NCBI GenBank assembly: GCA_049521795.1 | Contig: JBEKOM010000001.1 | Coordinates: 640,001-704,000, forward strand | Direction: 5' to 3' | Origin: Candidatus Bathyarchaeia archaeon | GTDB taxonomy: Archaea; Thermoproteota; Bathyarchaeia; Bathyarchaeales; Bathycorpusculaceae | Length of the DNA: 64,000 bases | In this document: positions 50,330 through 61,034 of the stretch, piece after piece | Layout: every line of letters starts with the position of its first letter | Numbering within the stretch: position 1 is the stretch's first letter | Position numbers and translations under genes: made by a program | The notes under the pieces: generated by a model | What the model was told of the DNA's origin: nothing | The model's database searches: none | The model's input: only the letters and a program-made list of their open reading frames with translations

Positions 50330-52762
50330 TTGAACGAGAAGACCCAAGAGTTCAGTCAGATGACGATAGAGAATACAGTCAAGTCTCTGCAGTCAAATCT
50401 GAACCGTGGGCTCTCGCCGGATGAAGTTGCGACCAAGGTAGGCCAGTATGGATACAATGAAATCCCTGAGAAAAAAACTAACCCGCTGAAGATGTTTGCA
50501 AGTAAGTTCTGGGGTCTCACTGCATGGATGCTTGAAATCATAATTGTGCTTTCATGGTTCCTCCACAATTACCCAGACCTGTACATTGTGAGTGGGCTTC
50601 TTGTCTTCAATTCGATACTGGGTTTTGAGGAAGAACAGAGAGCATCAGGCGCTATGGAATCACTGAAACAGAAGCTGCAAGTCAATGCAAGAGTTCTCAG
50701 AGACGGCTCTTGGAGAAACTTGTCGGCTAGAGAATTGGTTCCAGGTGACATAATTAGGACGCGATCCGGTGACTTTGTGCCTGCCGACGTGAAAATAATA
50801 GATGGCGAGCTAGGAGTCGACCAATCAGCCTTGACGGGAGAGTCAATGACAATAGACAAAAAATCAAGCGACGTTCTCTATTCGGGCACCATTGTCAAGA
50901 GAGGCGAATCCAACGGCATCGTCATCTCAACAGGGCTGAAAACGTATTTTGGAAGAACTGCCCAGTTAGTCCAGCTTGCAAGGCCAAAACTGCACATGGA
51001 AGAAGTCATTTCAAACGTCGTCAAGTGGCTTCTGGTTATAGTTGTGTCGCTGATCATCATTGCTGTAGCTGTTTCAGCGTTCGAGGGTATCAGTCTTTTG
51101 GATGTGCTGCCAATAGTCTTGGTTCTATTTTTGTCTGCGATACCTGTTGCTTTGCCGGCAATGTTCACTGTCAGTATGGCGTTGGGCTCTATGGAGTTGG
51201 CCAAAAAAGGCGTGCTTGTGACTAGGCTGAGCGCGTCTGAGGATGCGGCAACGATGAGTGTGCTCTGCGCTGACAAAACGGGCACAATAACCATGAATAA
51301 GCTTTCAGTTGCAAACGTAATCCCTCTGAATGGGTTTACTGAGAAAGATGTAATACTGTACGGTGCCTTGGCTTCTCAAGAGGCTAACCAAGATCCTATT
51401 GATAACGCCTTTATTGTCAAGGCTAAATTGGAGAATTTGCCCGTTTCTTCGTTTGTACAGAGGAATTTTGTTCCTTTTGACGCGAAAACACGGAGAACTG
51501 AAGCCTTGGTGCAAAAGGACAACAGTGAATTCAAGGTCTTGAAGGGAGCTGTCAGTATCATAGCCAAAGAATGTGGGCTTCAAGACGACTTCGCAAGAGA
51601 CTTGGAATCCCGGATGAGCAAGTTGGCCGAAAAAGGTTACAGAACCCTAGCAGTCGCACGAGCACATGATCACGAGTCTCCTGATATTGTCGGTTTAGTG
51701 GCGCTTTACGACATGCCTAGGACTGATTCAAAACAGCTGATACAAGAGCTCAAGCACCTAGGGATATCAGTGAAAATGTTGACAGGAGACGCTCTTGCAA
51801 TAGCGAAGGAAGTTGCAGCTGAAGTAGGGCTCGGCGAACGGGTGATTAAAGCTTCGGACCTGAAAGAATTCGTAAAAGAGAACGCAATAGAAGCGGCACA
51901 GGCAGCCGAGAAAAGCGATGGGTTCGCAGAGATATATCCTGAGGACAAATACGCGATCGTCAAAAGCCTACAAGCCGCAGGACAGGTTGTGGGCATGACA
52001 GGCGACGGCGTGAATGATGCACCAGCCTTGAGACAAGCGGAAGTGGGCATAGCCGTGAGCAGTGCAACGGACGTTGCGAAGGGTGCAGCCAGCGTCGTCC
52101 TAACGAATGAGGGTTTGACCAGCATTGTCGATTTGGTCAGAAATGGGAGGGTAATCTTCGAAAGAATATCTGCATGGGTGCTGAGCAAGATAGTGAGAAC
52201 TTTACAGACTGCCATTTTCGTGGTCCTGTCCTTTATCTTAACGGGTAATTACGTCGTGTCAGCGTTCGCAATAGTTCTCCTCTTTTTCATGACCGACTTC
52301 GTCAAGATAGCACTGTCCACGGACGATTTGAAATGGTCACAGGAACCTAATACTTGGAACATAACTGGGATAGTGAAAGTGTCGCTGCTGCTTAGCACGC
52401 TGATTGTCATCGAGTCGTTTGGGCTCTTATATGTGGGACTCAACGTGTTCCATTTGAATGTCGCCGACGAAACCTTGTACACGTTCAGTTTTGAAATACT
52501 ATTCTATTTTGCCATGTTCCTAATATTCAACGTTAGAGAAAGAGAACATTTTTGGGAGTCGAGACCAAGCAAGACCCTGCTCACAGCAATGATACTGAGT
52601 ATGATTGCTGCAACAATAGTGACGACAACTGGAATTCCAGGCCTCAAACCTATACCATTGAATGAAACTCTATTTGTGGCGTTCTGCACTGCTACACTCT
52701 CGCTAACACTCAATGATCTGGCCAAGTTTCTCTTTGTTAAGAAAACAGAAAATAGATGGTGA
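50330..52762 (+). CDS. P-type H+-ATPase (type IIIA)
   Basis: DQSALTGES, IPVALP, CADKTGT, KGA, MTGDGVNDAPAL, TM6 Asp (MTDF). Confidence 0.92.
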   Translation: MNEKTQEFSQMTIENTVKSLQSNLNRGLSPDEVATKVGQYGYNEIPEKKTNPLKMFASKFWGLTAWMLEIIIVLSWFLHNYPDLYIVSGLLVFNSILGFEEEQRASGAMESLKQKLQVNARVLRDGSWRNLSARELVPGDIIRTRSGDFVPADVKIIDGELGVDQSALTGESMTIDKKSSDVLYSGTIVKRGESNGIVISTGLKTYFGRTAQLVQLARPKLHMEEVISNVVKWLLVIVVSLIIIAVAVSAFEGISLLDVLPIVLVLFLSAIPVALPAMFTVSMALGSMELAKKGVLVTRLSASEDAATMSVLCADKTGTITMNKLSVANVIPLNGFTEKDVILYGALASQEANQDPIDNAFIVKAKLENLPVSSFVQRNFVPFDAKTRRTEALVQKDNSEFKVLKGAVSIIAKECGLQDDFARDLESRMSKLAEKGYRTLAVARAHDHESPDIVGLVALYDMPRTDSKQLIQELKHLGISVKMLTGDALAIAKEVAAEVGLGERVIKASDLKEFVKENAIEAAQAAEKSDGFAEIYPEDKYAIVKSLQAAGQVVGMTGDGVNDAPALRQAEVGIAVSSATDVAKGAASVVLTNEGLTSIVDLVRNGRVIFERISAWVLSKIVRTLQTAIFVVLSFILTGNYVVSAFAIVLLFFMTDFVKIALSTDDLKWSQEPNTWNITGIVKVSLLLSTLIVIESFGLLYVGLNVFHLNVADETLYTFSFEILFYFAMFLIFNVREREHFWESRPSKTLLTAMILSMIAATIVTTTGIPGLKPIPLNETLFVAFCTATLSLTLNDLAKFLFVKKTENRW

Positions 52763-52780: not shown

Positions 52781-53023
52781 ATGTCGCATATAAGAAGTGG
52801 CTGCGTCGTCTGTGGGGAGGAACTTGTTTATGGACAGAGTGAGAAACTAGAGTGCTTCTGCTGTCACAAAATTCTTGATTCAAACGCAAAGTGCGGAAAG
52901 GGGCACTACGTCTGCGACAAGTGCTATAGTATGCCTGGAAACGATCTGATAGAGAATTTCTGCAATACCAGCAAAATAGCAGATCCTTTGGAATTTGCGC
53001 GCGCGAGCTTTGCTTTTTTTTGA
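52781..53023 (+). pseudogene. Truncated Cys-rich protein (N-terminus of a DUF5714-like protein)
   Basis: SGCVVCGEELVY..C.CC....C.KGHYVCDKC; reading runs into GCGCGCGCG and a T-run, then stops. Confidence 0.6.
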
Positions 53024-53031
53024 ATTGAGCA

Positions 53032-55437
53032 TCATTGTGGACCGCTTTTGAATTTGCGTATCAGATATACCTTGACGGGGTCATTGATCAGAAACGTCAC
53101 TATTAATGTATAGCCCAAGATTGTAAGTACGGGTATGTAGCCGAGTGGAGCAAGTTCTAGGAAGCCTAAGAGCGAAATCGCAATCACAAACAGGATTTCC
53201 ACCGTGATTGTGATGTTTAGAAAATTGCTGGGTCGTGACTTCCAGAAATGATTCCGTTCACGTACGATCATGAGAGTGAATACTCCTGCAAGATTCAAAT
53301 AGGCAAACCCGAATGTGTAGATCTTGTCCACGTTCCCGGTCAGCCCGAAATATGATAAACTAGCCACGGTGAGAACTACACTTTCGATTATCATCAGTAT
53401 CCCTAATGATCCGCTGACTCCAAACAGCCGCGAAACTTTGAACGAATCAGGCTTCGAAGAAGACTGCACGTTATCCGTCGATATAGACATCGAGACGAAG
53501 TCGCCTAAGAAAAGCAGGAGCACTGTGCCAGTAATTGACAGCATGAAGGAGTGAGTGAGAAACAGCATGACAACAATGTACCCGACGATATGCAGTTTCC
53601 GAGCGACCATCATCAACGCCCAGCTATAGATCCGCTGGTAAATCGTCCTCGACGTCTTGATCATAGCTATTATGCCTCCAAGACCCTCACCAGTGAGCAC
53701 GGCGCTTGCCGAATCTTTAGCAATATCCATTGCATTCTTGACTGCTATTCCCACTTCTGCCTGACTCAAAGCGGGAGCGTCATTCACACCATCGCCAGTC
53801 ATTCCAACCACGTGCCCGCGGTCCTGAAGAGCCTTCACTATCGTGAACTTGTCTTCAGGGTAAATCTCAGCAATGCCATCACTATCTTCAACCGTGGAGT
53901 CCAGAATCTCCCTTTGATCTTCCAACTTCTCGATCTTTGCCATCTTGGTTATCTTGTCGCCTAAACCTATCTGCTGAGCGATGTTCCTTGCAATCGGGAG
54001 CGCGTCGCCTGTAAGCATCTTCAAAGACACGCCCAAATCGCGGATTCGATCTAATGCGCCACGCGAATCTTCCCGTACCCTGTCGGCCACCCCTGCGAGA
54101 CCGACGAACGCAAGTCGACTCTTGTGATTCCCTCTGGCAACAGCGATCACTCTGAGCCCCTTGGCCGAGAGTGCCTCGGCATGCCTGAACAGGTCTTTTG
54201 ATTCTTTATCTGGTAAATTGCAGGAGGAGCAAATGGTGTTAATTGAGCCTTTTCCCACGTAGAATGTTTCACCCGATTTCTGAATCGTAGCTTCTGTCAT
54301 TCTAGTTTTGGGATCGAATGGCACGAACTCCATTTGCGAGTAACCGTCTAATGAGATATGTTCCTCAGCTGCGGCCGTCAAAAATGCTATATCTATAGGG
54401 TCTTGATTGGCTTCTTTCGATGCGAGCGCCCCGTAGAGCAAAACATCGTTTTTGCTGAGCCCATTAGTCGGAATTTCTTCTTCGATGAAGAGTTTATTCA
54501 TGGTGATTGTGCCTGTCTTGTCCGCACATAATACGTCCATAGTGGCTGCATCCTCGCTTGCGCTGAGCCTTGTAACAAGGACTCCTTGCTTTGCAAGCGC
54601 TGAAGAACCTAGCGCCATATTCACGGTGAACATGGTCGGCATCGCAACTGGCACGGAAGCCACAAGAAGTACTCCTGCAAGCGGCAGCAACACGTCAAAC
54701 GGGAACCCTGTGAGAAGAGCGTACACGAAGACTATTAGAAGAGATCCGAGAACTATCGTAAGAAGTCGGTTTGCAACTTTTACTGTTACCTCCTCCATGT
54801 GCAGCTTAGGTTTTGCAAGCTCGAGCAACGAAACGGTTTTTCCAAAGTAAGTCTTTGTTCCCGTGGCATCGACCGTGCCTGTAGCTTCCCCACGTTTGAC
54901 CGCTGATCCGGAATATGCTTTTTCTCCAAGAGATTTTTCCACGATTATAGATTCGCCTGTGAGGGCTGACTGGTCAACGCCGAAAGAACCGTCGATGATT
55001 TTCACGTCTGCAGGCAAGAGGTCGCCTGCTCTGACTCTTACGAGGTCACCAGGGACAAGTTCCCTAGCTGGAATGATTGACCATTTTCCATCCCTTTTGA
55101 CTCTGCTCTGGATCCGCAGCTTCTGCTTCAACGCAGCCATTGCTGTTCTGGCTCTTTTTTCTCGCCACAGTGCCATTGCAGCATTGAAGAGAAGGAGGAA
55201 CACGATGACGAGAGTTTGTGGATACTTGCCGAGCAGAAACGTGATTACTGCCGTGGCTTCAAGCATCCAAGGGACGATGCCCCAGAACCGTTTTCCAAGC
55301 CTTATGACAAAACTTACTTTCTTCTCAGGGATCTCATTATATCCATACCTTTCAAGCCTTCTCTGGGCTTCAATAGTCTCCAGTCCATTTTCAAAGTTAG
55401 TTTCTGACAATTTCTGTTCTTTATCTGGACCGACCAA
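53032..55437 (-). CDS. P-type H+-ATPase (type IIIA), second copy
   Basis: DQSALTGES, VPVAMP, CADKTGT, MTGDGVNDAPAL, TM6 Asp (LGDF); TTG 55437 after AGGTGA. Confidence 0.9.
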   Translation of the reverse strand: MVGPDKEQKLSETNFENGLETIEAQRRLERYGYNEIPEKKVSFVIRLGKRFWGIVPWMLEATAVITFLLGKYPQTLVIVFLLLFNAAMALWREKRARTAMAALKQKLRIQSRVKRDGKWSIIPARELVPGDLVRVRAGDLLPADVKIIDGSFGVDQSALTGESIIVEKSLGEKAYSGSAVKRGEATGTVDATGTKTYFGKTVSLLELAKPKLHMEEVTVKVANRLLTIVLGSLLIVFVYALLTGFPFDVLLPLAGVLLVASVPVAMPTMFTVNMALGSSALAKQGVLVTRLSASEDAATMDVLCADKTGTITMNKLFIEEEIPTNGLSKNDVLLYGALASKEANQDPIDIAFLTAAAEEHISLDGYSQMEFVPFDPKTRMTEATIQKSGETFYVGKGSINTICSSCNLPDKESKDLFRHAEALSAKGLRVIAVARGNHKSRLAFVGLAGVADRVREDSRGALDRIRDLGVSLKMLTGDALPIARNIAQQIGLGDKITKMAKIEKLEDQREILDSTVEDSDGIAEIYPEDKFTIVKALQDRGHVVGMTGDGVNDAPALSQAEVGIAVKNAMDIAKDSASAVLTGEGLGGIIAMIKTSRTIYQRIYSWALMMVARKLHIVGYIVVMLFLTHSFMLSITGTVLLLFLGDFVSMSISTDNVQSSSKPDSFKVSRLFGVSGSLGILMIIESVVLTVASLSYFGLTGNVDKIYTFGFAYLNLAGVFTLMIVRERNHFWKSRPSNFLNITITVEILFVIAISLLGFLELAPLGYIPVLTILGYTLIVTFLINDPVKVYLIRKFKSGPQ

Positions 55438-55450
55438 ACGCTCACCTAAG

Positions 55451-55777
55451 CTAATAAACCAATTGTTCAACAATACGTTTTGAAATATCGTCCATCAGTT
55501 CGAGGGTCGCCGCATCAATTATCTCAAATATTCTGCGATCTGTAATTGAATAGAGTCTTCTGTTGCCGTCTTTTCTGTCCCTCACTAGACCACAGTCTTT
55601 GAGAATTTTCAAATGGCGGGATACAACGGGCTGGATTAGTCCAACATGCGGGATTATTTCACACACACATTTCTCGTTGGTGCGTAGGAATTCAAGGATT
55701 TCAAGTCTCGTCGGGTCCGATAGGGCGTTAAAAATCTTTGCCTTGAACTTGACGAGTTTCTCTGCTTTGGAATGCAT
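55451..55777 (-). CDS. arsR: ArsR/SmtB family metalloregulator
   Basis: FNALSDPTRLEIL, EKCVCEI (alpha3 Cys site), VSRHLKILK. Confidence 0.9.
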   Translation of the reverse strand: MHSKAEKLVKFKAKIFNALSDPTRLEILEFLRTNEKCVCEIIPHVGLIQPVVSRHLKILKDCGLVRDRKDGNRRLYSITDRRIFEIIDAATLELMDDISKRIVEQLVY

Positions 55778-55797
55778 ACTTAGGATAATAACAATAA

Positions 55798-55813
55798 CAA
55801 TATTTAAATATTG
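55798..55813. promoter_or_regulatory. Perfect 16-bp palindrome CAATATTTAAATATTG: candidate ArsR operator / bidirectional TATA
   Basis: Lies in the 102-bp divergent gap between arsR and the DGC operon. Confidence 0.6.
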
Positions 55814-55879
55814 CTATAGACTCTTCCGTATTGGTATGCTAGAAAAGTCAAACGAGACATACGAGAAGAGGAATAGTTC

Positions 55880-56248
55880 GTGGAAAAAAGAAAAGTGAGC
55901 TTCATATTCTGTGTCTGCACGGGCAAGTGCTCTGGGTTCAAGGATTTGGATATGTGGGATTTCATAAACGTCATAAGAGCCGAGTATCCAGTTGAATACG
56001 CATTCATTCATCCCATGCTTTGTGATGAAGATGGGGAACGTTTCTTTGCAGACTTTCTCCGAAAAGACAGACTCTATGTCATAGGAGGATGTGCCCCAGT
56101 GATGCAGAAAAAATTGTTTCGAGACGCCTTTGCAAAGGCAGGGCTTGACATAAACAAAGACTTGGTTTCTCTTGACGTCAGGAATATGACGACCGAAAAG
56201 GCATTAGAAACTGTGAAGAAAGCCTTGGAGACCGCGGGTCAAGCATGA
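55880..56248 (+). CDS. Stand-alone HdrA N-terminal-like Fe-S domain protein
   Basis: FIFCVC...HPMLC...VIGGCAP..QKKLFRDAF..AGL...DVR parallels HdrA GVFICHC...YTC...VVASCTP.THEPLF..AGL...NIR. Confidence 0.6.
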   Translation: MEKRKVSFIFCVCTGKCSGFKDLDMWDFINVIRAEYPVEYAFIHPMLCDEDGERFFADFLRKDRLYVIGGCAPVMQKKLFRDAFAKAGLDINKDLVSLDVRNMTTEKALETVKKALETAGQA

Positions 56249-56535
56249 CAGAAGAAACATACATGGGTGTTCCACGAAGCAGAATCCCTTGGTGTCCAAA
56301 GATAGATACATTGAAATGTAACCAGTGCGAGGGCGACCCGCAATGCCTCAGATTTTGCCCCCATGGAGTGTTCGAATACAACAAGGAAAAGAAGGAATTC
56401 ATCGTCAAAAACCCAAATAACTGCGTCGTGTTCTGCAGGGCGTGTTCCAAAGTTTGTGCTGAGGACGCTCTGAGTTTTCCAGAGAAGAAGGAAATTCTGA
56501 AGCTGATAAAGAATGTCAGAGAAGAAAAAAAGTAA
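56245..56535 (+). CDS. 2x[4Fe-4S] ferredoxin family protein
   Basis: CNQC....CLRFCP and CVVFCRACSKVC. Confidence 0.88.
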   Translation: MTEETYMGVPRSRIPWCPKIDTLKCNQCEGDPQCLRFCPHGVFEYNKEKKEFIVKNPNNCVVFCRACSKVCAEDALSFPEKKEILKLIKNVREEKK

Positions 56536-56917
56536 GTACATAATCATCCCGTGTAGCGGGATCGGAAAGGCACTGGGAACGATAACGCGTAGAGCCACAT
56601 GCATCGTAACTGAAGAACTGTTGCCGAATGATACTGATTCTATTTGTCTTCCTTTGCTCACAATCGAAGATGAGGAGACTGTGCGGAAGATAAGAGAGAA
56701 CCCTTGCATAACCCTAGATGGCTGCGTTGCTCAATGTGCCAAAAAAAATGTTGAACACCATTACGGAGAACTCAAAGGAAGCATCAGGATCCTGGACGTG
56801 ATCAAGGAGAATCCCAAGCTTAAGCCTGGAACCGTGCTGGACATCGGACCTGACGGTGAGAAACTGGCAAGAAAAACAGCCGAAAAAACCGTCAAAATCA
56901 TAGGGGATAAAAGTTGA
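56513..56917 (+). CDS. DGC-domain (putative zinc-binding) protein 1
   Basis: PCSG...ICL...LDGCVAQCA. Confidence 0.85.
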   Translation: MSEKKKSKYIIIPCSGIGKALGTITRRATCIVTEELLPNDTDSICLPLLTIEDEETVRKIRENPCITLDGCVAQCAKKNVEHHYGELKGSIRILDVIKENPKLKPGTVLDIGPDGEKLARKTAEKTVKIIGDKS

Positions 56918-57318
56918 TCAAACGCAAAATAGGCCTGATCTCCTGCAGCGGAGAAGGGCTTCCTGAAGGAATGATATCCCGCGTAGCAACTCGAAGAATA
57001 CTAGAAGAACGCGACGATGTCGTAACAATCTGCCTTCCTCTCTTTCTCGCAGGAGGACAAGAAGAGAGAGACTTCGCCAAGGACAATCCTTGCATAACCG
57101 TTGACGGCTGCGACAAGATGTGTGCGGCCAAAGGCGTCCAAATGTACGGCAAAGTGCATCCCAAATCGTCAATAGTCATATCAGACATTGCAGAAAAACA
57201 TAAACATCTTAAACCCAAATCAAAAAGCAGAATAGAACCTCAAGACGAGAAGCTTGTTAGAGAAACCATGAAACGCATTACTGAGGAGATAGACAGAGCA
57301 GAGGAGGAAGAAGAGTAG
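56914..57318 (+). CDS. DGC-domain protein 2
   Basis: SCSG...ICL...VDGCDKMCA. Confidence 0.85.
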   Translation: MIKRKIGLISCSGEGLPEGMISRVATRRILEERDDVVTICLPLFLAGGQEERDFAKDNPCITVDGCDKMCAAKGVQMYGKVHPKSSIVISDIAEKHKHLKPKSKSRIEPQDEKLVRETMKRITEEIDRAEEEEE

Positions 57319-57319
57319 C

Positions 57320-57739
57320 ATGCCAATAGAAAAGAAAGTTGCCGTTGCTGTTTGCACGGGCATGGACCGACCGCTTGCAACAGTGTCCCGATACGCAGGA
57401 TACCATGTTCTAGAAAAACTGAGGACAGACAAGACTGTCTTACTTTGCACTCCAGCCCTAATAGGTGGCGTTCAAGAGGACGTGACCTTTGCCAAAGAGA
57501 ACCCAGTTTTGGTTATCGATGGCTGTGGAGAAAAGTGCTGTGAAAAGATAGTCAACGAGGCGAAAGGGAAAATCAAAGCCGTCATAAACGTTGAAGACGT
57601 TCTTAAGGAGCATGAAGACCTGCAGCCGGAGTCTAGAGCTAAGCTTGGGCCGAAAGGCATGAAACTTGCCGAGATAGTGGGTGAGATGGCCGCGAAGAAG
57701 GTTGACGAGATACTCGCAGAGGTGAACAAGAGTGAGTGA
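57320..57739 (+). CDS. DGC-domain protein 3
   Basis: VCTG...LCT...IDGCGEKCC. Confidence 0.85.
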   Translation: MPIEKKVAVAVCTGMDRPLATVSRYAGYHVLEKLRTDKTVLLCTPALIGGVQEDVTFAKENPVLVIDGCGEKCCEKIVNEAKGKIKAVINVEDVLKEHEDLQPESRAKLGPKGMKLAEIVGEMAAKKVDEILAEVNKSE

Positions 57740-58127
57740 CAAGAAAGTCGCCATAGTTGCTTGCTCTGGCATGGGAAAAGCCCTTGGAACAGTGGCTCGA
57801 CAGGTCGCTTACAAGGTTGTGGACGAACTGAGACCTGACAAGACAGCCCTAATCTGCATTCCATCTTTGACCGCAGGGGTCGGAGAGTACAAGAGCCTGC
57901 TGCAAAAGTATCCTTCTATCATACTCGATGGTTGTGTGGAAAGGTGTGCCACCAAGATCATTTCCAAGAACCGAGGCATTATGAGAGCCAAAGTGTTTAT
58001 GCCCCAAATGGTTGCGAAGTATGGCTTGAAGCCAAAGTCGCGAACTGACCTTGGTGAAGAAGGCGAGAAGCTAGTTTCTAAGATAGCTGAGGAAGTAGCG
58101 GCGCTGGTTGACCAACTATCAAGGTGA
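57732..58127 (+). CDS. DGC-domain protein 4
   Basis: ACSG...ICI...LDGCVERCA. Confidence 0.85.
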   Translation: MSDKKVAIVACSGMGKALGTVARQVAYKVVDELRPDKTALICIPSLTAGVGEYKSLLQKYPSIILDGCVERCATKIISKNRGIMRAKVFMPQMVAKYGLKPKSRTDLGEEGEKLVSKIAEEVAALVDQLSR

Positions 58128-58606
58128 AACACATGGAACATCTACAACTGAAAGTTGACAAATATACGTTCACTGTTCCCAAAGGTCTCTTCTATAATGA
58201 GAATGATTTCTGGGCCAGAATTGACGGCAAGATAGCCACGGTTGGAATAACGTCCTACCTGCAAAATCATTTGAGTGACATAATCTTCGTTTCCCTTCCA
58301 CAAGTTGGCACGAAGATTGAACAGTTCGGTGAAGCCGGATCTTTTGAATCAGTTAAGGCTGCTCTCGACGTCATATCACCCGTTTCAGGTTCAGTGGTGG
58401 AAGTCAATAATGAATTGGTAATTTCACCTGATCTAGCTAACTCCGATCCATACGGCAAAGGCTGGTTTCTGAAAATCGAGCTGTCAGACTTTGAATCAGA
58501 CAAAGAGAACCTCGCAGACGCTGAAGGATATTTTGAGGTAATGAAGAAAAAAGTCGAGAAAGAACATGAACAACTGAAGGGTACGCACGCTGCAAACAAG
58601 ACGTAG
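58124..58606 (+). CDS. gcvH: Glycine cleavage H-like lipoyl carrier protein
   Basis: ATVGIT, ESVKA lipoyl-Lys, SPVSG.VVEVN, NSDPYGKGW. Confidence 0.9.
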   Translation: MKHMEHLQLKVDKYTFTVPKGLFYNENDFWARIDGKIATVGITSYLQNHLSDIIFVSLPQVGTKIEQFGEAGSFESVKAALDVISPVSGSVVEVNNELVISPDLANSDPYGKGWFLKIELSDFESDKENLADAEGYFEVMKKKVEKEHEQLKGTHAANKT

Positions 58607-58624
58607 AGAGGAGATCAAGCCATC

Positions 58625-58855
58625 ATGGATGCAAGCTATGAGGAAATAAGCAGAAAGTACCGGTTACTCAAAACTGAACAGGCGAGTATCGACCTATTCT
58701 CTCTGCAAAGGGAAATTCAGGACTACATAAAGAATCGCCAGGGCGCAAAACGAAAAGCTGGTGATATGGTGGAGGAAGCACAGGACATGTTAATGGATGT
58801 TACGCAGATGATTGAAGAGGGTCACTGTAACCCTCTTAGAAATAAGAAACTGTAG
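58625..58855 (+). CDS. Small helical hypothetical protein
   Basis: GGAGA SD; operon position; C-terminal GHCNP. Confidence 0.6.
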   Translation: MDASYEEISRKYRLLKTEQASIDLFSLQREIQDYIKNRQGAKRKAGDMVEEAQDMLMDVTQMIEEGHCNPLRNKKL

Positions 58856-58977
58856 TCATTTCTTCTGTCTGGGTTGGAACTATGAAGAGAATTGTGCTTA
58901 TAGCGCTAAGAACGCAGGCAAACACGGGGGACTGAAGCGCTCGTCAGATGCGGGGGAAAGCGAAGAGGTGCTTGTAA

Positions 58978-59472
58978 ATGGACAGGATGAAGGTTCTTTT
59001 CCTGTGTGAACACAATTCAGCTAGATCGCAGATGGCTGAAGGTTTGCTAAGACATCTGTACGGTGAAAAATATGAAGTCTTCAGCGCGGGCGCAAATCCG
59101 ACGCAAGTCAATCCTTTTGCCATCAAGATTATGGCTGAGATAGGAATAGATATTTCCAAGCAGACTTCCAAGAGCATTGAAGAGTTCCGAAACAAGGAAA
59201 TCGACTTGGTTGTCTCAGTGTGCAGAAGCAGCGCCAAGCTAATGTGTTCACTGTGTTCTTCACCAATAGTCATGGGTAGACCAGAGATAATCAACACGAC
59301 AATACCCGGAGCAAAACACTATCTCCACCATGGATTCAACGATCCTTCTGAAGTAATCGGGAGTGACGAGGAAAAGACCATGGCCTTTCGACGCACTAGA
59401 GACGACATCAAACAGTGGATAATTGATAATTTTGCCGATCCAAAGACAATAAGCTCGGACAACGATGCATAG
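58978..59472 (+). CDS. arsC: Arsenate reductase, LMW-PTPase (thioredoxin-coupled) type
   Basis: FLCEHNSARSQMAE, VC......C resolving Cys, DP..FRRTRD. Confidence 0.88.
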   Translation: MDRMKVLFLCEHNSARSQMAEGLLRHLYGEKYEVFSAGANPTQVNPFAIKIMAEIGIDISKQTSKSIEEFRNKEIDLVVSVCRSSAKLMCSLCSSPIVMGRPEIINTTIPGAKHYLHHGFNDPSEVIGSDEEKTMAFRRTRDDIKQWIIDNFADPKTISSDNDA

Positions 59473-59597: not shown

Positions 59598-60017
59598 TCA
59601 GTCACTGTGATCCTTTTTTGGAGTGACTCTGTTTTTTATTCTGTGTGCGGGGATTTTGTTGTAGGTTGCTGAACATTTCTTTTTGGAGCATTGCCTAGTG
59701 GCAGCCCATTTCAGGATCGGGATCACCGCTTCTCTTAGCCCTTTTCCATCTTTTGTCAATGAGTATTGGACGCGAGGCGGGATTTCGGCAAATGATTCTC
59801 TTTTAATTAGCTCTTCCTCTTGAAGCTGTTTTAGCGTGTCTGCAAGTGTCTTGGGGCTTATGCCGTGTAGTTCTTCCATGAGTTTGTTGAATCTGAGGCT
59901 ACCGTAATTCCCAATTGCGTTTATGATAAGAAGTGCCCATTTCTTGCTTATTACGTCTATGATTCCTTCAAGCGGACAAAAGCAAACTACGTCATTCCTG
60001 TTCTGCGTACCTGTCAC
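59598..60017 (-). CDS. HxlR family winged-helix regulator
   Basis: CP....DVISKKW, GISPKTL...LK.L, PPRVQYSLT. Confidence 0.92.
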   Translation of the reverse strand: MTGTQNRNDVVCFCPLEGIIDVISKKWALLIINAIGNYGSLRFNKLMEELHGISPKTLADTLKQLQEEELIKRESFAEIPPRVQYSLTKDGKGLREAVIPILKWAATRQCSKKKCSATYNKIPAHRIKNRVTPKKDHSD

Positions 60018-60104
60018 TTTCCTTTTGGATAGGAACTATTTCACTATAAACTTGATAGCATAAATACTTTACTTGTAATAGTATCAGAATAGAGGTGATA
60101 ATAA

Positions 60105-60305
60105 ATGGACCAAGAGTGCGGGTGTGGGATGCATCATCATAGACATGAAGACCATTGTGGGTGCGGCATGCATGGAGATGGACACGGGTACAGAAGACGA
60201 TTCTTCACAAAGACCGAAAAAGTTGAGAAGCTGAAGAGCTACGCGGAAGAACTCAAGAATGAACTGAAAGCTGTCGAAGAGAAAATCAAGGAGATGCAGA
60301 GTTAA
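60105..60305 (+). CDS. Small His/Cys-rich coiled-coil protein (DUF5320-like)
   Basis: CGCGMH twice, RRFFTK.EK.E.L..Y...L..EL; GAGGTGA SD. Confidence 0.75.
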   Translation: MDQECGCGMHHHRHEDHCGCGMHGDGHGYRRRFFTKTEKVEKLKSYAEELKNELKAVEEKIKEMQS

Positions 60306-60338
60306 ATATCCATACAACCAATCGGTGTGAGAAGGAAT

Positions 60339-61034
60339 ATGTCGAAACAAAACAATCTCCATGTTTATTCTGCTGGTGCAGTAGCACCCCCAATCAAGAA
60401 ATGCGCAGAAGAGTTCAAAGCAAGATTCGGAACAGAATTCGAGTTTACTGTCGGAAAGGCTGAAAACCTCATAGAAGAAATCGGAGAAACCAAAGAAGGC
60501 GACTTGTTAACTTGCGGTTCAGAGTACATACTTGACCATGCACAGTTGAAGGGATTAATTCTTAAAGAAACAAGAAGAAGCCTTGGTTCAAGAACCTCTG
60601 CTATTCTTGTGCAGACTGGAAATCCGAAAAAAATAAAGTCAATGTCCGATTTGGCGAAAGAAGGAATGCATCTTGGTGTTTCTGTAAGTGGCTGTTTGAC
60701 TGGGGTCTGGGATGATTTAGCAACTAAAGCGGGATTTGCCGAGCAAATCAGAAAGAACACCATTGCTTATGCCGATGGATGTGGGGAATTGATGTCTTTT
60801 GTCAACAAGAAGAAAGTGGATGCAGTTCTGGGATGGGATGCCTTCAAGAACTTGAACATGCAAACTATGGATAAAATAGACTTGCCGAAAGACCTTCAAG
60901 TGCACAGAAGTACAGCTATAGGGGTCATTTCTTTCTCCAAGAACAGAGACCTTGCGAAGAAATTCATCGACTTCCTTGTGTCCGTCAGCGGTAAGAAGAT
61001 TTATGAAGAATACGGCTGGCATCATTTAAGCTAG
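60339..61034 (+). CDS. ModA-like oxyanion-binding protein without signal peptide
   Basis: LHVYSAGA, ILVQTGNPKKIKSMSDLAKEG, LAKKFIDFL..GKKIYEEYG. Confidence 0.8.
   Translation: MSKQNNLHVYSAGAVAPPIKKCAEEFKARFGTEFEFTVGKAENLIEEIGETKEGDLLTCGSEYILDHAQLKGLILKETRRSLGSRTSAILVQTGNPKKIKSMSDLAKEGMHLGVSVSGCLTGVWDDLATKAGFAEQIRKNTIAYADGCGELMSFVNKKKVDAVLGWDAFKNLNMQTMDKIDLPKDLQVHRSTAIGVISFSKNRDLAKKFIDFLVSVSGKKIYEEYGWHHLS

Follow-up and report, generated by a model that had tools for sequence, protein, structure and literature searches.

Gene organization of the locus

The window analysed here is a 64,000-nt stretch of a Bathyarchaeia metagenome-assembled genome (contig JBEKOM010000001.1, positions 640,001 to 704,000), and the subject of this work is a gene cluster at positions 55451-59472 of it, in which an ArsR-type repressor is encoded divergently from genes for a protein resembling the N-terminal domain of HdrA (HdrA-N-like), a ferredoxin, four DGC-domain proteins and a GcvH-like lipoyl carrier. 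Judged by gene content and order, the cluster is the four-DGC long form of a conserved, uncharacterised cassette. The source genome is 2.44 Mb in size and 98.75% complete, and its nearest public relatives are titled Candidatus Bathyarchaeota or Bathyarchaeia. An earlier note, written by a model from the letters and their open reading frames (ORFs), had drawn attention to the locus, and the gene positions and families that it gave agreed with the ORF list, Pfam and NCBIfam.

Seven genes follow each other on the plus strand between 55880 and 58606. The first encodes the 122-aa HdrA-N-like protein (55880-56248), recognised by a weak NCBIfam HdrA match, by Foldseek and by a family profile, and the second a 96-aa ferredoxin (56245-56535; PF12838 and PF12837), whose translation holds eight cysteines in two four-cysteine cluster motifs of the 2x[4Fe-4S] type. 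They are followed by four proteins with the four-cysteine DGC domain (PF08859), namely DGC1 (56513-56917; E 1.4e-15), DGC2 (56914-57318; E 1.1e-16), DGC3 (57320-57739; E 2.1e-14), which occurs only in the four-DGC form, and DGC4 (57732-58127; E 1.3e-15), with scores of 53.9-61.2 bits against a gathering cut-off of 27. The last of the seven encodes the GcvH-like lipoyl carrier (58124-58606; PF01597 E 1.5e-35), which passes the NCBIfam cut-offs with 127 against 115.85 bits (TIGR00527) and 135.4 against 117 bits. When read from the ORFs, the junctions were as tight as had been described: the HdrA-N-like and ferredoxin genes overlap by 4 nt, ferredoxin and dgc1 by 23 nt, dgc1 and dgc2 by 4 nt, dgc3 and dgc4 by 8 nt, and dgc4 and gcvH by 4 nt, and a 1-nt spacer separates dgc2 and dgc3.

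After gcvH, an 18-nt gap leads to a 76-aa ORF on the same strand (58625-58855), which had no Pfam or NCBIfam match and remained without an assigned family; homologues follow GcvH in 11 of the 31 long-form loci described below. A further gap of 122 nt precedes an arsenate reductase-like (ArsC-like) gene (58978-59472, plus strand) of the low-molecular-weight protein tyrosine phosphatase (LMW-PTP) type (PF01451 E 1.3e-16). Its product has the LMW-PTP fold, the CX5R loop and the later cysteine residues, and it scored 108.5 bits on TIGR02691, for which the cut-off is 174.3.

On the minus strand, the ArsR/SmtB repressor gene (55451-55777; PF01022 E 8e-19; NF033788 97 bits against a cut-off of 55) encodes a C-V-C motif in the alpha-3 position. 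This matched the earlier description of a divergent ArsR with a CVC site, but arsR does not stand alone. It heads a two-gene unit with a gene for an 813-aa P-type ATPase of type IIIA, the proton-pump family (53032-55473), which scored 699.6 bits on TIGR01647 (cut-off 615.5). The two genes lie on the same strand and, at the listed start of the ATPase gene, overlap by 23 nt.

In one peat metatranscriptome run, five contigs, 95-99% alike, fell within the stretch from dgc1 to the gcvH/small-ORF junction. They lay in dgc1, at the dgc2/dgc3 junction, in dgc3, at the dgc4/gcvH junction and at the gcvH/small-ORF junction, so that three of the five bridged gene junctions. No contig of RNA run X24 lay on arsR, hdrA-N, fdx or arsC, and such contigs cannot show absence. 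DNA may have been carried over into the RNA library, and the contigs are therefore weak evidence for expression of the cassette in peat.

The ArsR repressor and its putative operator

The 102-bp spacer between arsR and hdrA-N holds a perfect 16-bp palindrome, CAATATTTAAATATTG (55798-55813, without strand). The earlier note had reported it, and the pattern search confirmed it. With up to 2 mismatches allowed, it was matched in 0 of 100 shuffles of the window and is therefore not expected by chance, and a search of the 2.44-Mb genome at the same tolerance found no second copy. Close relatives retain the palindrome in this spacer, amid flanking bases that diverge, and in two loci (L005 and L051) it is replaced by symmetric variants in which the dyad is preserved. 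Its centre is a TATA-like core, TTTAAATA, 28 bp from the arsR start. This arrangement suggests that the palindrome is likely to serve the divergent promoters as a common TATA box and ArsR as its operator.

In the window ArsR, C37-V-C39 lies 16 residues before S-R-H-L. A CxC motif is present in 60 of 62 distinct cassette-linked ArsR sequences, mostly 16 residues ahead of the S-x-H-L of the recognition helix, a position that corresponds to the As(III) site in ArsR proteins of the R773 type. The CVC motif is also used by Cd/Pb sensors and is thus, by itself, not specific for arsenic.

In the three-DGC long forms L009, L044, L047, L048, L051 and L053, the spacer between arsR and the HdrA-N-like gene carries a cysteine-rich ORF of about 60 aa with one CxC followed by two CxxC motifs, together with one or two TTTAAATAT-type elements. 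The spacer in the window has no such ORF.

Conservation of the cassette in two forms

To follow the gene set through other genomes, 151 Bathyarchaeia genomes were sampled for PF08859; regions with tandem DGC genes were fetched and single matches were left out. PF08859 was present in 37 of the 151 genomes, and GcvH adjoined the DGC genes in 17 of 20 tandem-DGC regions (19 genomes). A metagenome scan with a DGC2-type alignment gave 590 relatives, of which the best 80, most similar to the window DGC2, were kept. GcvH was found in 60 of these 80 loci and in 30 of the 33 that span at least 6 kb. Judged by these gene neighbourhoods, the set is conserved as a unit.

An architecture count over 107 loci separated a long form (31 loci, 27 of at least 6 kb) from a short form (53 loci, 22 of at least 6 kb). 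The long form has the order ArsR, HdrA-N-like, ferredoxin, DGC1, DGC2, (DGC3), DGC4, GcvH, and the short form GcvH, DGC1, DGC2, usually with an OsmC-like gene. A maximum-likelihood tree placed the DGC proteins in separate clades, with supports of 100/97 for DGC1, 100/99 for DGC2 and 100/100 for DGC3 (5 rows). DGC4 grouped with the third DGC of three-DGC cassettes, and the two DGC proteins of the short form were the orthologues of long-form DGC1 and DGC2. From this tree the paralogues are old, and their gene order is fixed, as would be expected for the parts of a hetero-oligomer, which the DGC proteins probably form. A complex prediction for DGC1, DGC2 and GcvH gave a score of 0.00 against a mark of 0.32 in the absence of controls and weighs neither way.

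These counts bear on a further alternative, that an ordinary H protein of glycine cleavage and unrelated small redox genes came to lie beside arsR and arsC by chance. The window GcvH does pass its family cut-offs, and the genome encodes both GcvT and GcvP. However, the window gene is a second copy: another GcvH, 40% identical, is encoded at C1:470035-470445, and GcvT (C1:61641) and GcvP (on C2) are distant from the cassette. Linkage to GcvP, GcvT or GcvL, which served as a proxy for a role in glycine cleavage, was absent from the window GcvH, which is coupled to DGC genes instead. As the linkage of GcvH and DGC genes with overlapping stop and start codons also recurs in most of the regions and metagenome loci, we consider a chance cluster very improbable.

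The OsmC-like gene differs sharply between the two forms. Among loci of at least 6 kb it was present in 20 of 22 short forms and in 2 of 27 long forms; it follows DGC2 in 42 of the 80 metagenome loci, and tblastn did not find it in the source genome. Its frequency in the short form raises the possibility of a general lipoyl-dependent defence against peroxide and thiol stress, in which the H protein would serve an OsmC/Ohr peroxidase and the cassette would owe its place in arsenic islands solely to the thiol and oxidative stress that arsenite brings about. According to the available text of the sources, Ohr/OsmC proteins are lipoyl-dependent peroxidases whose disulfides have lipoyl groups as their biological reductants (PMC5384416), and a GcvH-like protein beside OsmC was proposed as the electron donor of the latter in Hyphomicrobium (10.64898/2026.10.01.755906). 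The near absence of OsmC-like genes from the long form and their lack in the source genome argue against this, and it would leave the DGC proteins, the constant CxC-type ArsR and the arsenic transporter and methylase unexplained. We give such a defence a small chance.

Arsenic genes around the cassette

An arsenic link had been proposed from the window, and the genes that recur around the cassette strengthen it. In one locus (L015) the order is ArsR, Acr3, GcvH, DGC, DGC, OsmC-like, LMW-PTP and ArsM, with Acr3 at 417 bits (TIGR00832 cut-off 283), ArsM at 361 bits (NF008823 cut-off 263) and the OsmC-like protein at E 5e-10 (PF02566). Similar orders recur in L016, L043, L058, L069, L072, L076, L102 and others. 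Acr3 directly adjoins the cassette in many short-form loci and is present in 17 of the 22 of at least 6 kb, and in L011 arsM overlaps the gcvH stop codon. The 27 long-form loci of at least 6 kb all have ArsR; Acr3 is present in 11, an ArsC-like gene in 10 and ArsM in 4, and Acr3, ArsM or ArsC in 22. Among the 33 metagenome loci of this length, Acr3, ArsM or ArsC was found in 25, and ArsR or one of these in 32. On these counts, the gene set is tied to arsenic by the recurrence of Acr3, ArsM, ArsC and a CxC-type ArsR.

A specific coupling to ArsC, as claimed in the earlier note, was not supported. ArsC is far less constant than ArsR (10/27 against 27/27), and in the window it is set apart by the 122-nt gap. 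Five close genome relatives cover the region, and in 3 of them an ArsC-like gene follows the cassette; the orthologue of the window ArsC lies about 1.4 kb further on in L001 and L004, beyond two inserted genes, and the fetched stretches of L003 and L005 held no ArsC-like gene. Judged by gene order, ArsC is a variable neighbour and not a core member of the cassette. The absence of thioredoxin had been used as an argument for a new reductant of ArsC. It holds for the window, as the matches to PF00085, PF01571 (GcvT) and PF02347 (GcvP) all lie outside C1:640001-704000, but it fails for the genome, which has four PF00085 thioredoxin-family matches and thioredoxin reductase (TrxR)-like genes (335.9 bits, just under the cut-off).

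The gene that follows arsR also varies. It encodes the P-type ATPase in the window and in L001, L003, L004, L028, L030 and L036, and Acr3 in L002, L005, L009, L032, L047, L048, L051 and L053, so that by position a proton-pump-type ATPase takes the place that Acr3 has in relatives. A second ATPase gene of the same family lies at 50330-52762 of the window on the plus strand. A third paralogue, split by a frameshift near residue 141, is found at C3:122851-125213 beside a second ArsR/ArsC pair.

Elsewhere in the genome (C5:14465-15671, or L109:4465-5671), ArsM is preceded by a 98-aa AhpD-like protein of the CMD family (PF02627 E 2.7e-7), and NCBIfam has models of ArsM fused to an AhpD domain. From this arrangement, the pair is another link of arsenic methylation to thiol-disulfide proteins. 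The genes downstream of the three-DGC cassette of L008 (320-3690) encode a CcdA-like membrane protein, an 89-aa thioredoxin-like protein and a YeeE/TsuA-like transporter, which at 341 bits misses its cut-off of 400. They are accompanied there by three small ORFs of 103-115 aa, for which a DsrE/F/H-like nature is a guess from the first residues alone; the transporter gene and these ORFs lie less than 5 kb from the cassette. CcdA and a small thioredoxin-like protein recur in L044, L047, L048, L051 and L053.

The H protein and its redox partners

The window GcvH has the GcvH fold with the lipoyl-lysine, and K78 and E75 were invariant in all 43 cassette GcvH sequences. As it contains no cysteine, the lipoyl arm would provide the only thiols possible for this protein. 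LplA-type ligases are encoded elsewhere in the genome, at C3:138231 and C9:60137. Flavoproteins encoded in line with the cassette in L061, L083, L101, L107 (short form) and L089 were compared with the equivalog model for dihydrolipoyl dehydrogenase (Lpd); all five tested passed, with 474-506 bits against a cut-off of 408.8, and a truncated sixth in L062 was left out. The only sensible reading of an Lpd beside an H protein is that the lipoyl arm cycles between disulfide and dithiol, and this points to a redox-cycling lipoyl arm.

In standard long-form loci there is no Lpd and always the pair of HdrA-N-like protein and ferredoxin. The source genome likewise has no protein above the Lpd cut-off of 408.8 (the best reached 328.7 bits), and the Fe-S pair is therefore read as a ferredoxin-linked counterpart of Lpd. 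Lpd would then be the NADH-linked one, and the two look like alternative inputs. A 448-aa flavoprotein encoded beside the other GcvH was considered as an Lpd and set aside as CoA-disulfide-reductase/NADH-oxidase-like (376.5 bits against a cut-off of 578.8).

The HdrA-N-like protein

The description of the 122-aa protein as an HdrA minidomain was borne out by fold and profile matches to HdrA residues 1-90. The direct NCBIfam HdrA match was weak (positions 6-95 of 771, E 9e-4). An AlphaFold 2 (AF2) model with a pLDDT of 88.8 was compared with the PDB by Foldseek, and the top six matches were all HdrA chains (7bkd_A, 7bkb_A, 8rvu_A, 5odh_A, 5odc_A and 5odi_A; E 3.6e-5 to 1.2e-3; TM-score on the query 0.59-0.69), with MvhD further down the list. 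A wide VIA-align comparison of the same model returned generic folds only (Z <8), and the HdrA match comes from Foldseek and the profile. Against three HdrA sequences, the profile of 27 homologues aligned over HdrA residues 1-90 at E 0.003-0.04, and the CxC, C and C positions matched; C11, C13, C17, C48 and C71 were invariant in the 27 sequences. The protein thus has the N-terminal Fe-S domain of HdrA with its CxC...C...C ligands, and the FAD-binding, thioredoxin-reductase-like core of HdrA and the inserted ferredoxin domains were not found in its 122 residues. The fold and profile matches together with the invariant cysteines support the minidomain reading and a [4Fe-4S] site, and we consider the protein a probable [4Fe-4S] carrier.

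The kinship with Hdr proteins also brings in sulfur. The cassette could handle sulfane sulfur or thioarsenic compounds in a manner similar to sHdr-LbpA, where lipoate-binding proteins cooperate with DsrE-type sulfur transferases and a persulfide sensor of the ArsR type. Its substrates would be persulfides or thioarsenates, which are frequent in sulfidic sediments and in peat. In the available text of the sources, sHdr needs LbpA and is accompanied by DsrE/TusA transferases (PMC6067878, PMC11094781), and its repressors are of the ArsR type (PMC12423496). The YeeE/TsuA-like transporter, below its cut-off, and the three small ORFs near the L008 cassette would also fit. However, none of the ten locus genes was named by Pfam or NCBIfam as HdrB/HdrC (CCG) or as a flavin-bearing HdrA. 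The genes that recur nearby are Acr3, ArsM and ArsC rather than genes of sulfur oxidation, and sulfur-transport neighbours were seen only in L008 and L003. Sulfur handling is, in our view, distinctly unlikely.

The DGC proteins

In the DGC alignment, C14, G70, C71 and C75 were invariant, and C45 and D69 were kept in at least 90% of the sequences. The AF2 model of DGC1 (pLDDT 92.8) is a flavodoxin-like sandwich in which the conserved cysteines are placed after strands 1, 2 and 3. Foldseek gave no match to this model at E <= 0.001. The wide VIA-align comparison found an uncharacterised protein first (3pu6_A, Z 8.8) and then generic Rossmann or flavodoxin-like folds; DsrE, ArsD and MvhD were not prominent among the rows, and this excludes none of them. 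The DGC1 sequence had only chance-level rows against the PDB and nothing usable in the ESM Atlas, and tblastn with DGC2 gave no match to plasmids. In Pfam the domain is described as distantly DsrE-like, which would fit the sulfur reading. PF08859 is a small family, comprising at E <= 0.001 1,139 of 1.84 billion cluster representatives, and in two proteins (P0010 and P0078) DGC is fused to Thioredoxin_3.

The conserved cysteines suggest a different use of the cassette, namely capture and hand-over of As(III) without redox turnover. The dihydrolipoyl arm and the DGC cysteines would bind arsenite, acting either as a buffer that protects essential lipoyl enzymes or as a carrier that delivers it to an exporter or ArsM, and the Fe-S proteins would do no more than keep the thiols reduced. 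Dihydrolipoamide and other vicinal dithiols are tight ligands of As(III), and ArsD hands As(III) to ArsA. Each DGC domain has four conserved cysteines, and paralogues of fixed order in separate clades fit a hetero-oligomer. The cassette adjoins Acr3 in many short forms, and a separate DGC clade flanks P-type ATPase genes in L026 and L027. Against static binding, the Lpd in line with five cassettes and the OsmC-like thiol enzyme found in 20 of the 22 short forms of at least 6 kb both argue for disulfide turnover. As(III) capture without turnover is therefore an unlikely explanation, though one with a real chance.

The separate DGC clade (support 99/98) comprises genes in L026:5951-7394, L027:2381-5888 and L018:5968-6824, and the ATPases that it flanks in L026 and L027 are of the same family as that in the window. 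In L018 its DGC gene is divergent from an HdrA-N-like protein and two ferredoxins, and ArsR is found near it in L018 and L027. Many DGC2-type proteins of about 240-325 aa, among them P0007, P0009 and P0078, have an additional conserved domain in the middle, which begins with C-x-C-G and is without a Pfam match; in P0078 it is followed by Thioredoxin_3. The "putative zinc-binding proteins" of PMC12704099 were found to be unrelated small CxxC proteins.

A proposed ferredoxin-fed dithiol system in an arsenic regulon

The reading that we prefer, with a probability of roughly one half, is that the cassette encodes an ArsR-controlled dithiol system of an arsenic regulon that is fed by ferredoxin. 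The CxC-type ArsR would bind at the palindrome/TATA element and repress two divergent units, one consisting of arsR and the P-type ATPase gene (Acr3 in relatives) and the other of the seven coupled genes from hdrA-N-like to gcvH-like. Electrons may pass from reduced ferredoxin to the HdrA-N-like [4Fe-4S] protein and on to the four-cysteine DGC proteins, which would reduce the lipoyl disulfide of the dedicated H protein. The dihydrolipoyl arm could then re-reduce enzymes that cycle through a disulfide, namely thioredoxin-type ArsC, ArsM and, in the short form, the OsmC-like protein. It may also deliver As(III) for export. A stronger version is put forward only tentatively and is itself doubtful: in anaerobic archaea, the HdrA-N-like protein, the ferredoxin and a DGC hetero-oligomer would form a new, ferredoxin-driven disulfide reductase that keeps the dedicated H protein in the dithiol state, lipoyl would be both a thiol currency and an As(III) carrier, and, in lineages that like this one lack Acr3 and ArsB, the ArsR-controlled ATPase would export arsenic or energise its export.

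Several observations weigh against the ferredoxin-fed dithiol system. Five of the 27 long-form loci of at least 6 kb have no Acr3, ArsM or ArsC within about 6 kb, and the loci counted are not independent, many being close kin of the window; their GC content ranges over 0.42-0.69. Neither Acr3 (TIGR00832) nor ArsB (PF02040) was found in the window or in the source genome by profile searches and tblastn, and since thioredoxins and TrxR-like genes are present in this genome, no new reductant is required for ArsC and ArsM. One locus, L089, has Lpd as well as the Fe-S pair, and the two inputs are therefore not strictly alternative. The DGC proteins have a flavodoxin-like fold of a generic kind. Similar topology and cysteine placement are the basis for seeing in DGC a diverged Fe-S domain of the HdrA-N/MvhD type, as hhalign against the HdrA-N-like family gave a probability of 0.8%, which is not significant. 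The four DGC cysteines could bind Zn or As(III) rather than carry electrons, and the available part of a preprint on Pseudodesulfovibrio mercurii ND132 assumes Zn binding (10.1101/2022.10.17.512643). ArsR-type repressors can also sense sulfane sulfur, according to the accessible text of PMC12423496. Finally, the transfer of electrons and of arsenic, the lipoylation of the H protein, induction and the hetero-oligomer are all steps that we infer.

The toxicity of arsenite is classically put down to its binding to the dihydrolipoyl groups of 2-oxoacid dehydrogenases. If the ferredoxin-fed dithiol system is real, a lipoyl carrier with its own reducing module in arsenic regulons reverses this picture, and the gene set suggests that lipoic acid, the classic arsenite target, has become a tool with which anaerobes respond to arsenic. 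Strict anaerobes, to our knowledge, lack glutathione, and the cassette would add a missing thiol supply to their ars toolkit. For the DGC domain (PF08859), and for the N-terminal domain of HdrA as a protein of its own, the cassette is a first functional context. Arsenic is mobilised in peat and sediments, which are rich in Bathyarchaeia, and the cassette may therefore bear on arsenic speciation there.

Neighbouring genes

Downstream of arsC, the region 59598-61034 encodes an HxlR/MarR-type regulator, a 66-aa His/Cys-rich protein and a weak ModA-like binding protein. The same set recurs beside the cassette in L002, L006, L012 and L031 and looks like a second metal-related unit. On the other side, an 80-aa cysteine-rich ORF (52781-53023, plus strand) lies between the two convergent ATPase genes. 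Its match, at E 1.4e-11 but well short of the cut-off, is to the N-terminal region of MbdU, a family of metal-binding selenoproteins, and a homologue of the ORF is found near the L005 cassette. Full-length DUF5714 proteins are encoded near the cassettes of L021 and L107.

Comparison with known systems

A full-text literature search, with supplements and subscription journals outside its scope, returned no description of GcvH, DGC or OsmC in ars operons. Within the searchable literature, there is no described system that combines a lipoyl carrier, DGC, a free HdrA N-domain and arsenic genes, in agreement with the earlier note. Judged by sequence and models, what is new is the four-DGC form of the cassette in Bathyarchaeia (archaea), the proton-pump-type ATPase in the place of Acr3, the fold evidence for the HdrA-N protein, the conserved and genome-unique operator candidate, and Lpd and the Fe-S pair as alternative-looking inputs.

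The cassette resembles ars operons in its CxC-type ArsR, in the divergent promoter with a palindrome and in the LMW-PTP ArsC-like gene nearby; in relatives, Acr3 and ArsM share the operon. It is unlike them in having seven genes without a described ars function in a genome without Acr3/ArsB, and in carrying a P-type ATPase of the proton-pump family where relatives have Acr3. One mention of a DGC gene was found in such a setting. In the available text of the ND132 preprint, a PF08859 gene with function unknown belongs to the ArsR-headed ArsR5-ArsP-ArsE operon and stands beside a Thioredoxin_3 protein (PF13192), the family that is there called ArsE (10.1101/2022.10.17.512643). Unlike the window, that operon has a single DGC gene, and the text at hand names no GcvH or Fe-S partner.

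The sHdr-LbpA systems, as far as the accessible parts of the sources describe them, share with the cassette a dedicated lipoate-binding protein, Hdr-related Fe-S proteins, DsrE-type cysteine proteins and an ArsR-type repressor. In the window, in contrast, the N-terminal domain of HdrA is encoded alone as a free 122-aa protein, none of the ten genes is named as HdrB or HdrC, and the neighbours are arsenic genes.

In the thiol relays of Lpd, a lipoyl protein and Ohr/OsmC, an H-type carrier serves as dithiol donor outside glycine cleavage, as the available text of the sources has it; the short-form relatives come close to this arrangement, mostly with an OsmC-like gene and, in five loci, with Lpd. 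These relays differ from the cassette in having no DGC, no Fe-S input and no arsenic context, and the window, which has neither OsmC nor Lpd, has the HdrA-N-like protein and ferredoxin instead. A lipoyl-protein thiol relay is also formed by Lpd, DlaT, AhpD and AhpC in M. tuberculosis, and Nyvltova et al. reportedly described in 2016 a system of L protein, H protein and OsmC in Trichomonas vaginalis.

The closest parallel in chemistry, by analogy only, is with ferredoxin:thioredoxin reductase, in which a one-electron donor reduces a protein disulfide through an Fe-S centre beside cysteines. The proposed logic of the cassette is the same, with ferredoxin as the one-electron donor and a protein disulfide that would be reduced through an Fe-S cluster next to cysteines.

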